Positions 29,372 to 59,704 of a DNA stretch of 64,000 nucleotides are shown piece after piece. The stretch is from Eledone cirrhosa (lineage: Eukaryota): assembly GCA_964016885.1 (NCBI GenBank), contig OZ024752.1, forward strand, positions 3,596,001 through 3,660,000. The letters are read 5' to 3'. Under the pieces are notes generated by a model. It was given only the letters and a program-made list of their open reading frames with translations. It had not been told where the DNA came from and ran no database searches. Position 1 is the first letter of the stretch. Each line of letters starts with the position of its first letter. A program made the translations under genes and the position numbers.

Positions 29372-29570
29372 TAATATAGAAATGGCTTCTAAAGGACTAG
29401 AACTGTTTCAGCCGGGAGAAATCAACAGGGCTTCCTGATGATTTCGCCCGAATGTAACAGTTCTAGTTCGGTAGAAGCCTTTCTATATTAAACATTTATA
29501 CTCTATTTTGTATTCAGTACCTTACTTACTGTGGTTACCCCCGATTGAACCCGGGATAAACTTATAATTT
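29372..29570. mobile_element. Old diverged fold-back palindrome of a hammerhead motif plus ~80 bp extension
   Basis: Arms 29372-29429/29434-29490; plus strand GGCTTC CTGATGA(29435-41)...GTAA CAGTTCTAGTTCGG TA GAAGCC; minus arm CTGTTGA...GAAA; homologous to 59525-59704. Confidence 0.75.
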
Positions 29571-29689
29571 ATATATATATATATATATGTGTGTGTGTGT
29601 GTGTGTGTGTGTGTGTGTGTGTGTGTGTGTGTGTGTGTGTGTGTGTGTGTGTGTGTGTGTATAAGTAACGAAAAATAAAATAATAATAA

Positions 29690-29884
29690 TAATAATTGTT
29701 TCTACTTTAGACCACCAGTTTGAAGGGGAGGGGAAAGTCGATTAAATCGACCCCAGCGCATGACTGGTGCTTTATTTAACGACCTCGGCAATGTTAACCT
29801 CGGTGGGATTTGAACTCAGACCGTAAAAAGCCGTAACGCTATGCTGCAAAGCATGGTGTCCGACGCTCTACCGAAACTGCCAAT
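29690..29884 (-). mobile_element. tRNA-derived SINE, near full length
   Basis: TTTGAACTC B box, ACTGCCAATCC head, AATAATTGTTTCTAC tail. Confidence 0.8.
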
Positions 29885-29904
29885 CCCCAACTCAATAATA
29901 ATAA

Positions 29905-32250
29905 AACTGATGATGATTTCATTTATTGACCACAAGGGCCGACATTTAAGGGACAATACAAAGACACGGACAGTGGCAATTGACAATACGCTCGAGTAAA
30001 AGTACACAGTAGCAAAACCAATTTAACAATGAAAATATAAAATAAACTATGTATAAACATAACAAAATAAATTCCCTAGGGGCGACTTAGGTACCGACCA
30101 ATCCTGAACGACCTGACGCCTTGAGGGCACTCCTCTCCTCCTCAAATTAACCAGCTCACAGGCACATGGTCAGAGTAGGCCCAATCACACGGGCCATTGT
30201 CGCCACATTCATCCGCCTTTTAAAAAATGTACTGGGGGTAGGGGTAAACTTCTCTCTCCACCGTCACCTTCCTTTCCAGGTGAAACTTGAAGAAGTTGAT
30301 GAGGGATTGACCGAAGAGAAACGTTTCTGTCTTCAGTCCTTTCAACCTGATCCACCTTATAACCTCTTTCGCAACTGCCAAGATACAGAAGAATATTACC
30401 TGCCCTTCCTGGCCAAAAGAAGGCGGCGGGACGATCTTCACTATGGATCCGTTCTACATGCGACGACAGCTGTTCGACATAACTCCACAAGTCAGTAATC
30501 CATGGACATTGGACGAGTACGTGGAGACTGTTTCGTCGTTCTGCGCGCATCTCGGGCAGGTCCGTCTGACACTACTTCCGTACTTGTAGAGTTTATCATG
30601 AACCGGCAGTGCCCCCATTAGCACTGTCAAGCGTGGGATTTCTGGAAGTTATCCGTCGTACCGGCTCGAATCTCCTCCGGAACAGACTGCTCATTCGACT
30701 TAGTCGACGCCCAGAGCCTCTCTGAGTGCTTCGTCGCACTCGCCTTCCAATAATCCTCTATAGAACTCGAGAGTAGAAGTCGCACTGACCGCATTGCCCG
30801 CTTGATAGAGGGCAGTGAGTGTCTGGCAACATTCAAGATGACAGTCACCCAGTCTCGGTCTCTTCTTGACCTAGGACTGCAGCTCAGTCAAAGAGAAGAG
30901 CTGCGGAAAGGCTCGGCTGACAAACGTCGACCACATCTGTTCAGGCAGAATATTTGGAGATGCCGCAGCCTCAGCGCATGTCTGCACCTATCGCGTGGAG
31001 AGTGCTGGCAGCAGATGGATCGCCTCACCAACGGAACCTGTCCCCTCCGCAATAATTTGAAAAGGAGCCGTTCCAATTTGGTGAGACGCAATCGGGGGCA
31101 AGGGACGACATTCAGGCGGTAGTAGATGACGGACGCGATGTACGCATTCTCCACGTCCGCCCCTTTTCAGTGATAGCTTCCTGGCAGCCTATTTCTGAGT
31201 AAGATTGGCTCCCCTGCTCGTTACCTCGTCCCAATTCTTATCCACCTGGAGGTCGGGTCCGAACCAAATTCCGAGCAACTTAAATCGTCCGTCTGTCCAG
31301 CGTCCAACGATGCTGTTGGATGGCATCGACTTGCCTCTCCAGGTGCCGAGCTGCAAGCCTATCGACTTTTCCCGGTTAAGATTCGCTCTCGTCAACCTTT
31401 CATATTCCTCCAATAAAGTGCAGACCACCTCGATTTCCGAGGTGTCTGACATCATCACGATGATATCGTCCGTATAAGCCGACAGAGCCTTTCCGCTTCC
31501 CGTTTCGATCAGGATATCCTGCAACATGCAACAGCTCCAGCTTCTGCAGTAAAGGCTCGAGAGTCAATACGTACAGAAGGGAAGAGCCAGCGCACCCTTG
31601 ACTCACCGATGGGGGGACCTGAAACAGTTCCGAGAGGTGGATATTAACTATGACCACCGAGCAAATGCCGCTGTTCATTGCAGCGATCCAGCTTCTGAAG
31701 ACGGGACCGAAGCTAGCTCCCTTGAGGACAGCCCGTATGTACCGATGGTCGACCCTATCGAATGCTTTCGATTTATCTAAATTGATCAGTGTCCCAGCGA
31801 AGCCAGGTTTACACCCTATCCTCTCTATGATGTATCGCTTGAGGTGGAGGTTGTCATGTATTGACCTGGTTGGGATTGCGCAAGTTTGCGCCTCCTCAAC
31901 CAAATCCTCGACGACAAGCGCCAACCTCTTTGCTAACACCTTGGCCAAAATCTTAAGCTTTGTGTTAAGAAGACTTATGGGCCTGAAGTTGTCTAATGTA
32001 TCCCTCTTGTTCTCGTCTTCCCTTATCAGCGTCACCACTCTCCTGCTCACAGAATTGGGAATACTCCTGTTCTGCTGCCAGTCGCAGTAGAGAACAAGTC
32101 TGACATATTTACGTAAAGCTCGTAGGGCAGACCATCTAAACAAGGGCATCCTGAATTTCGGCTGAAGTAATCGGCCTTTCAAATCGCTCAGCTTCGGCTG
32201 TCGAGAGGCGCGGCAAGCTGTCGAAGTAGGGACTGAAGTCCGCTACACTT
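29905..32250 (-). mobile_element. Tx1/L1-clade LINE, 5'-truncated and decayed, with 3' end
   Basis: [42 protein letters not shown]-terminal CPRC...HVLVQCP; minus-strand AATAAA at ~29921-26 followed by short ATC repeats. Confidence 0.9.
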
Positions 32251-32252
32251 TC

Positions 32253-57700: not shown

Positions 57701-58272
57701 CATGTCTAAAGAATCGCTCAATATCTCATCTGATCACTAATTCAAACATCATTATTTCGAACCATTAATACAGCGTTATTTTAAGGGCTGTCTCTAGTTA
57801 TTTCACTTAGTCTATTTATGTCAGCCAGTCTTATTACACAAACACGCTGCACACACACGCTACACACACACACACAAACACCACACCACACATACACGCA
57901 CACACACGCACACGCACACACACGCACACACACACACACACACACGCACACACGCACGCACACACGCACACACACACACACACACACGCACACACGCACA
58001 CACGCACACACACGCACACACACGCACACACGCACGCACGCACGCACACACACCCACACACACTCACACACACACACACACACACACACACACACATATA
58101 TATACATATATATATATATATATATATATATATATATATATATATATATATATATATGTGTGTGTGTGTATATATATAATTATAAGTTTGAAGAACAGGC
58201 AGATAAATGTTTATCAATATTCCTCAAATTAGGTGAATTTTATCTGCCTGCTCTTCAAACTTCTAATTTTAT

Positions 58273-58495
58273 AAATTAGGTAGTAACATGTGCTTATGCC
58301 GTATTTGACTAAATAGAATTAGTCTGTTAGTTGGGATTGTTAAAAAACCCTCTGAATGGAAAAAAGGATGAGTATCGACGTACATAGGCTACGAACCGAC
58401 ATATTTGGTTTGCTGGACCAATGTGTATCCATTACACCAAAAAGTCACCCATGATTGTGTCAAATACGGCATAAACACATGTTACTACCTAATTT
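58273..58495. mobile_element. Element with 37 bp inverted termini, related to the 63546 palindrome
   Basis: AAATTAGGTAGTAACATGTGCTTATGCCGTATTTGAC / GTCAAATACGGCATAAACACATGTTACTACCTAATTT. Confidence 0.7.
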
Positions 58496-58589
58496 TCAAA
58501 TTCAGTAGCGGTTTCTAAACAAAGCCCTTTCTGTATCTCCCTATCTATATATATATTTTTAATATTCTGTATTTTTGTATTATTTATTT

Positions 58590-59518
58590 ATATATATATA
58601 TATATATATATATATATGTGTGTATATATGTATATATATATAGATATGTGAGTGTGTGTATAAATATAGATATGTGTGTGTGTGTATATATATATATATA
58701 TGTATATATATATATATATATATATATATATATATATATACATATATATGTGTATATATACATATATATATGTATATATACATATATATATATATATATA
58801 TATATATATATATATATATATGTATATATGTGTGTATACATATATATGTGTGTATATATAAGTATACATATATATATATATATATATATATATATATATA
58901 TATATATATATATATACATATATATGTGTATATATACATATATATATGTATATATACATATATATATATATATATATATATATATATATATATGTATATA
59001 TGTGTGTATACATATATATGTGTGTATATATAAGTATACATATATATATATATGTATATATATATATATATGTATATATATATATACATAAATATATACA
59101 TATATATATACATATATGTATACATATATATACACACATATATATAATATATATATATACATATATGTATACATATATATACACATATATATATATATAC
59201 AGATATATATGTATACATATATATACACACATATATATAATATATATACATATATGTATACATATATATACACATATATATATATACAGATATATATGTA
59301 TACATATATATACACACATATATTTATACACATATATATATATACATATATATATATGTATACATATATAGATATATACATATATATACATATATAGATA
59401 TATACATATATATACATATATATATATATATATACACACACACACATATCTATATATATATATATACATATATATATATATATATATATATATATATATA
59501 TATATATATATATATATA
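58590..59518. repeat. Degenerate (TA)n expansion with internal higher-order repeats
   Basis: Directly visible. Confidence 0.95.
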
Positions 59519-59524
59519 TTTTTT

Positions 59525-59704
59525 TTTTTTTTATTTTATAGAAGGAGCTTCTACAGGACTAGTACTGTTTCGTTCAGATTTCATCTGAACGAAACAGTAC
59601 TAGTCCTGTAGAAGCTCCTTCTATAAAATAAAAAAAATTTTACTCTGCCATGTATTGAGTACCTTACTTACTGTGGTTATCCCCGACTCAACCCGGGACC
59701 TACG
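59525..59704. mobile_element. Perfect 113 bp fold-back (3 nt loop) of a half hammerhead plus extension
   Basis: 59525-59579 / 59583-59637; arm reads GAAA CAGTACTAGTCCTG TA GAAGC; homologous to 29372-29570. Confidence 0.85.

Follow-up and report, generated by a model that had tools for sequence, protein, structure and literature searches.

In this work, we describe two short inverted repeats, locus A (29372-29563) and locus B (59525-59700), in a 64,000-nt stretch of the genome of Eledone cirrhosa (assembly GCA_964016885.1, contig OZ024752.1, positions 3,596,001-3,660,000 of the forward strand; this whole stretch is hereafter called the window, and all coordinates below are relative to it). The pattern formed by the two loci is real and recurring, and it is of an already described kind, namely Penelope-like element (PLE) insertion. 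Both loci are probably dead-on-arrival, 5'-truncated insertions of a high-copy PLE family, with inverted arms generated by self-priming of the complementary DNA (cDNA) on mini-hairpins of 1-3 bp. The first-pass annotation of this DNA had proposed instead that the helices of a ribozyme trigger the snap-back; these two copies do not support that proposal, and neither junction uses helix pairing.

Anatomy and family relationship of the two loci

Positions 29440-29556 of locus A and 59577-59698 of locus B are 77.9% identical over 122 columns (E ~3e-22). The parts in common consist of the 3' half of a type I hammerhead-like motif followed by an extension of 65-75 nt, within which a shared 21-nt motif occurs exactly twice in the window at up to 3 mismatches, a count reached in 0 of 100 shuffles. 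The relationship asserted in the first-pass annotation is thus borne out. Neither sequence comparison nor the search with the 21-nt motif revealed further family copies in the window, which is otherwise AT-rich DNA of animal type, rich in TA microsatellites and retroelement debris. The features of the two loci are as follows:

29372-29429, minus strand: locus A left (inverted) arm, tailless; outer end meets TA repeats; 49/57 identical to the right arm
29428-29480, plus strand: locus A decayed type I hammerhead-like motif, called by descriptor; Rfam without match
29430-29433, no strand: locus A spacer GCTT, at which the arms fold back; it lies 3.5 nt upstream of core C3, within helix I (5' strand)
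29491-29563, plus strand: locus A one-sided tail of ~70-75 nt with (TA)n(TG)n behind it; 3' end approximate
59525-59579, minus strand: locus B left (inverted) arm, perfect and tailless; a longer T run and (TA)n stand in front of it
59577-59585, no strand: locus B junction GAT-TTC-ATC, 3-bp stem and 3-nt loop; core G8-A9-N with loop-2 letters
59577-59617, plus strand: locus B hammerhead-like 3' part (helix II, GAAA, helix III, GTA triplet, helix I 3' strand)
59583-59637, plus strand: locus B right arm, 55/55 identical to the left arm
59638-59700, plus strand: locus B one-sided tail of ~63-65 nt, followed by (TA)n

For a census of the family, reads or contigs of four sequencing runs (X1, X2, X20 and X24) were aligned to 59556-59702 at 80% likeness. 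X24 is reduced-representation data, counts for X1, X2 and X20 are given in contigs, and the reference starts downstream of the A-type fold point, which biases the apparent starts of joints. The rows listed comprise 40 of the 84 with other letters and 24 of the 298 with loose ends. Family records were present in all four runs (6013, 3899, 4326 and 780 records; summed depth does not give a copy number), and the family is high-copy, with thousands of related records. Part of the locus B stretch was found in 21 of the 24 runs listed, and at least half of its 11 words in 4 of the 24; no RNA run among these 24 carried it, and the runs with small shares do not count as evidence. The 21-nt motif had no match in the metagenome, viral and genome contig collections, and the hammerhead-core patterns had none in the metagenome and viral collections. 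The sole match to a core pattern in the genome contigs lay in a bacterial contig (L001) with no family sequence beyond the motif, and we attribute it to chance.

Two 3' ends of the family enter TA repeats, one behind 59696-59699 and the other behind 59625 (453 X24 reads), and the shorter of them lies near the point where both inverted arms stop. The inverted arms of A and B have their outer end in common, and their inner centres are different. The independence of the two insertions, as claimed in the first-pass annotation, is supported by their centres, flanks and subfamily letters, all of which differ. After the GTA triplet, the left arm of locus A reads like a common X24 variant at 59616-59618 and locus B does not, so that the two loci belong to different subfamilies and represent separate insertions.

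The arms of locus A (right arm, 29434-29490) are identical in 49 of 57 aligned columns, with one gap, and all 55 positions agree at locus B, where the spacer TTC (59580-59582) is the 5' strand of helix II. Both hairpins fold far outside chance (z = -10.5 for A and -18.5 for B). The first-pass annotation had placed the folds correctly, in stem I for A (29430-33 within 29428-34) and in stem II for B (59580-82), and had rightly called A diverged and B perfect. Its further claim that the copies are of different ages stands in so far as arm divergence differs (9/57 in A vs 0/55 in B, Fisher p = 0.003). However, both arms of locus B carry letters that are in the minority within the family, at 59590 and, in X1, X20 and X24, at 59599, so arm divergence provides no clean clock. 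The perfect arms of B reflect a recent event or homogenization, and a divergent source also fits.

A putative variant of the type I hammerhead

Hammerhead calls were made with a purpose-written type I descriptor of our own, using shuffled sequences as control. Judged from its letters, the motif looks like a variant of the type I hammerhead found in PLEs. In locus A, the 5' strand of helix I (29428-34) is followed by the core CTGATGA (29435-41), a helix II of TTC/GAA (29443-52) with a flanking T.T mismatch, a GAAA box that reads GTAA (29454-57), a helix III with a CTAG loop, and a GTA triplet; cleavage would be predicted after 29473, before the 3' strand of helix I (29474-80). The descriptor score of this copy was 9 vs a best of 8 among 60 shuffles, a modest margin. 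In its left arm the GAAA box is intact and the core has one change; in its right arm it is the GAAA box that differs, by one letter. In locus B, GAAA and GTA are kept and the 5' core is gone. Across the copies, the CUGANGA, GAAA and UH boxes occur in type I order with helix I, the intact GAAA coming from the left arm of A and from B, and the core letters are backed by loose ends in 4/4 runs. A palindromic loop 3 is present in both loci, as ACTAGT in B and as CTAG in both arms of A. The G10.1-C11.1 pair that closes helix II is absent, T29442 facing T29453 and T59579 facing C59590, a position at which the majority letter of the family is T. Both copies are predicted to fold as long hairpins rather than as a ribozyme.

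Hammerheads in the terminal repeats of PLEs have been described by Cervera and de la Pena (2014, PMC4209133). The motif shares with these metazoan minimal type I hammerheads the type I order, the CUGAUGA and GAAA boxes, the palindromic loop 3 and membership in a variable family with many solitary or opposite-strand copies. In contrast to them, it has U.U or U.C in place of the highly conserved G10.1-C11.1 pair, a helix II of 3 bp, and a longer helix III and loop. The descriptor gave five hits in the window, with cores at 1531, 3767, 29435, 60842 and 62717, and 0/5 have the canonical G-C at the base of helix II, which suggests a variant shared within this genome. The core at 1531 lies in a solitary minimal type I hammerhead (1517-1595), also with a palindromic loop 3.

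A proposed model of Penelope-like insertion

The structures agree in several respects with the canonical endonuclease-positive PLE unit (Arkhipova et al. 2013, PMC3846280; Craig et al. 2021, PMC8557442), namely a head-to-head copy, a palindrome at the junction, a tail on one side only and an AT-rich or microsatellite target, and self-priming has been proposed for that unit. An inverted, 5'-truncated copy next to the 5' end, with a tail of 30-40 bp at one end, is described in PMC8557442, and palindromes at the inverted junction are read as the result of self-priming in both papers; pairs of hammerheads on opposite strands, 100-700 bp apart, have been ascribed to truncated PLEs (PMC4209133). The recurring biological process invoked in the first-pass annotation is therefore borne out, as this described pattern (PMC3846280, PMC8557442). 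At both A and B, we found an inverted 5'-truncated copy next to the 5' end, a tail of 63-75 nt on one side, in a family with two 3' ends, and TA repeats at both ends of the insert; such repeats also follow the 3' ends of the family. The window has six further structures with inverted arms, whose spacers measure 0-149 nt. Unlike the canonical unit, the inserts are shorter than 200 nt, are cut within the hammerhead and have no open reading frame (ORF) attached, and their fold points can be placed to the base.

The Anolis Poseidon PLE studied in vitro (Frangieh et al. 2024, PMC11167929) offers a second likeness. There, the tail is the stretch between two start sites of reverse transcription, AT-rich DNA is nicked and both strands are extended, and hammerhead cleavage is dispensable for insertion in vitro; the two 3' ends that bracket the tail and the AT-rich target are also seen here. 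Unlike the present analysis, the part of that work considered here is silent on the site at which inverted arms fold, and the passages considered of PMC8969392 and of a 2026 retrozyme preprint add nothing on fold points. A search of mainly open-access literature gave no published map of where on the hammerhead PLEs fold back.

We infer the enzyme, the order of the steps and the choice of self-priming over two-ended priming. A PLE enzyme acting in trans would nick AT-rich (TA-rich) DNA and reverse-transcribe from the tail end; synthesis would stop after ~120-135 nt, in this family within the hammerhead; the cDNA would fold back on 1-3 bp at the stop and copy itself, and the tail boundary would be where the product is resolved. 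The stop of synthesis and chance local complementarity, and not the pairs of the ribozyme helices, would set the fold point. The spacers of 3 and 4 nt, together with arms that share minority letters, favor a single template.

Several observations weigh against this interpretation. The tail of 63-75 nt is longer than the 30-40 nt in print (PMC8557442), and no target-site duplication is readable within the TA-repeat flanks of A and B. No ORF for a reverse transcriptase (RT) or GIY-YIG domain could be tied to the family from the window, and scans of the contig collections gave no family member. With Rfam, neither the gathering score nor a cutoff of E up to 10 gave a hammerhead at A or B, and the motif lacks the G10.1-C11.1 pair in both. 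The 3-bp junction of B does not fold by itself as DNA (0 kcal/mol). The rows listed include 7 opposite-strand joints (X1, 4 contigs; X2, 3 contigs; X24, 43 reads; X20, 0), too few to show fold-back as the usual state of the family. Finally, a line of loose ends in X24, considered below, suggests a non-random centre near that of locus A.

The same window contains a decayed PLE-like ORF (41337-42254) with stops and frameshifts, which is not linked to the A/B family. Among its look-alikes in the Atlas, 18-51% of members have PF26215 HTH_animal, with a score of 0.96 and thus weakly recognized, and a Pfam search of the ORF pieces at 41337 and 41892 gave no match. We take the later pieces of this ORF to resemble a PLE zinc-finger linker and a GIY-YIG domain.

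Fold points and alternative explanations

That the ribozyme's own helices act as fold-back hairpins or as stall points, at several stems, was the model of the first-pass annotation, and both spacers do sit on helical strands. Helical letters, however, make up 24 of the 51 of the ribozyme, so that two uniformly placed centres would both fall in helices with p ~0.22. Mini-hairpins of at least 3 bp with loops of 3-5 nt are available at 9 centres in 124 nt of B and 7 in 136 nt of A, that is, one per 14-19 nt. Locus A does not use the pairing of helix I: its junction is a local hairpin around GCTT with a 4-nt loop, and the true partner of helix I (29474-29480) is ~40 nt away. As for locus B, family letters upstream of its junction are provided by loose ends before 59576-59577, which run into the core and helix I in 4/4 runs. 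Helix II is consequently TTC-loop-GAA, with a highly variable loop (59583-59586); the junction of B is 3 nt off this register and relies on the loop variant of B itself. We had considered the centre of B as a natural helix II hairpin of 8 bp and rejected it, as the native upstream letters continue into the core. This junction is moreover rare among family records: in X1, the depth of 59556-59575 is 11-72 vs >60,000 downstream; X2 has a depth of 10-38 there, X24 no more than 1.8 reads, compared with ~970 in the bin that follows, and X20 a depth of 0. Other families also place their centres outside their cores. The fold-back at 3668-4258 is centred ~200 nt upstream of the hammerhead-like core at 4159, and that at 42666-43069 ~40 nt upstream of a variant core near 42909, seen by eye and without a call by the descriptor; of the six other inverted structures measured, these 2 have a hammerhead-like core and 4 have no callable core within their arms. 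Helices as the trigger are, in our opinion, improbable. The junction of B may not even be primary, since it is formally equivalent to a central deletion. The centres of palindromes are unstable. In a longer palindrome centred upstream, for instance at the point used by A, the GAT of core G8-A9-N would have a direct repeat in the left arm (GAT, the complement of 59583-85), and a deletion between the two gives exactly the junction of B; locus A itself offers 9 comparable deletion routes. As a possible deletion product of an A-type palindrome, the fold point of B is not provably primary. Yet the perfect arms of B leave little time for such an event, its product keeps a 3-nt spacer with nothing stabilized, and no longer allele was seen, which makes a secondary origin unlikely.

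The inverted arms could also stem from two-ended priming, in which two cDNAs started at opposite-strand nicks are joined head-to-head by microhomology. The PLE protein of the anole nicks both strands and extends them, uses two start sites and is a predicted dimer (PMC11167929), and such priming would explain why a single arm is tailed, as well as the longer spacers (31, 33 and 149 nt) elsewhere in the window. We regard it as rather unlikely for A and B, given that 5 of the 8 measured structures have spacers of 0-9 nt, which would need near-equal truncations, and that minority letters are common to both arms of B. An assembly or library fold-back artefact at B, or a hairpin of a miniature inverted-repeat transposable element (MITE) or a microRNA, is highly improbable. 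B is a perfect hairpin and has weak scores to many Rfam microRNA models, but all of these are below gathering; the arms of A are diverged, the two inverted arms end close to one and the same position of the family, and the tail is one-sided. The depth of the left arm of B is low but non-zero in two contig sets, one of which may be from the window's own sample. A MITE or Foldback DNA transposon was rejected because the inverted arms do not enclose the tail and the two copies have different centres, a microRNA precursor because there were 0 Rfam matches at gathering score and generic hairpin matches below it, and a non-long-terminal-repeat retrozyme because we found two solitary head-to-head copies 30 kb apart and none besides in the window.

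A further model, compatible with PLE membership, concerns where the self-priming occurs. Synthesis might tend to stop and fold at a point of the helix I 5' strand that lies 3-5 nt before the core, with B as a rare outlier; we put this forward tentatively, as a possible refinement. Candidate causes would be trans pairing of that strand within a hammerhead dimer, the end of the template, or the self-complementary purine-run/TTCC. The centre of A lies at -3.5 relative to C3, and the majority line of 521 X24 loose ends before 59587 is complementary in 11/11 letters around a centre at -4, within 1 nt of that of A (chance ~2e-5 over 40 registers). In addition, agreement among the loose ends before 59577 (202 contigs in X1, 186 in X2 and 1045 reads in X24) drops a few letters upstream of the core (0.47-0.48), and each of the 7 rows listed with opposite-strand joints starts at 59576-59592. 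Nevertheless, the 521 reads, whose agreement is 0.61, may derive from few loci, X24 being reduced-representation data; 30 contigs in X1 and 12 and 16 contigs in X20 show uninverted native upstream sequence; the low agreement may equally reflect flanks or several subfamilies; and these rows are 24 of the 298 with loose ends, against a reference that starts downstream of the fold point. It is doubtful that, in this abundant family, the centres of most fold-backs differ by no more than 1-2 nt and fall in the helix I 5' strand, and a single-site hotspot, whichever of the three causes might underlie it, is at best a tentative proposal.

Other repeats in the window

The fold-back at 3668-4340 belongs to another family and has arms identical at 269/274 positions, a 33-nt spacer, a tail of ~80 nt ending in TA repeats and hammerhead-like cores at 4159 (plus strand) and 3767 (minus strand). 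A nested inverted structure extends over 16096-18426; its outer arms are ~97% alike, its inner part (16929-17591) is perfect (327/327) with a 9-nt spacer, and microsatellite-like DNA is copied in both arms. The palindrome at 42666-43102 has perfect 202-bp arms without spacer and a tail of ~35-40 nt; in the variant near 42909, judged by eye, the core is U3-A8-like and loop 3 is palindromic. Adjacent or nested fold-backs at 58170-58502 and 63347-63899 have spacers of 31, 149 and 4 nt; the structure at 63542-63765 has a duplicated centre and lies within a second inverted pair, and 58265 and 63542 look related by eye. One more hammerhead family is represented at 60696-60879 and 62598-62801, on opposite strands and 1.8 kb apart, with cores at 60842 (minus strand) and 62717 (plus strand) that have the best descriptor scores of the window.

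Remnants of RTs of the long interspersed nuclear element type (PF00078) occur at 19395-20924, 11314-12235 and 31134-32242, the first as an open frame of ~500 aa after a TA run. A repeat resembling short interspersed nuclear elements, presumably of a cephalopod kind, is present in at least 10 copies (770-930, 11190, 14407, 29709, 37420, 47955, 48796-49316, 57602 and 62956).

Implications

As it stands, the pair of loci is a further example of the described pattern of PLE insertion, useful for annotation only. How the inverted ends of PLEs are made, and what the hammerhead does, are still called undefined in PMC8557442 and PMC11167929. With its thousands of records and its truncation within the ribozyme, this family is well suited to locating self-priming points to the base, and a hotspot, if confirmed, would make this question directly testable. 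If such a hotspot were true and caused by pairing in trans within a dimeric hammerhead, the folded RNA template would have left its footprint in the genome at base level, and where PLE insertions have their 5' end would be determined by the ribozyme even if it does not cleave.

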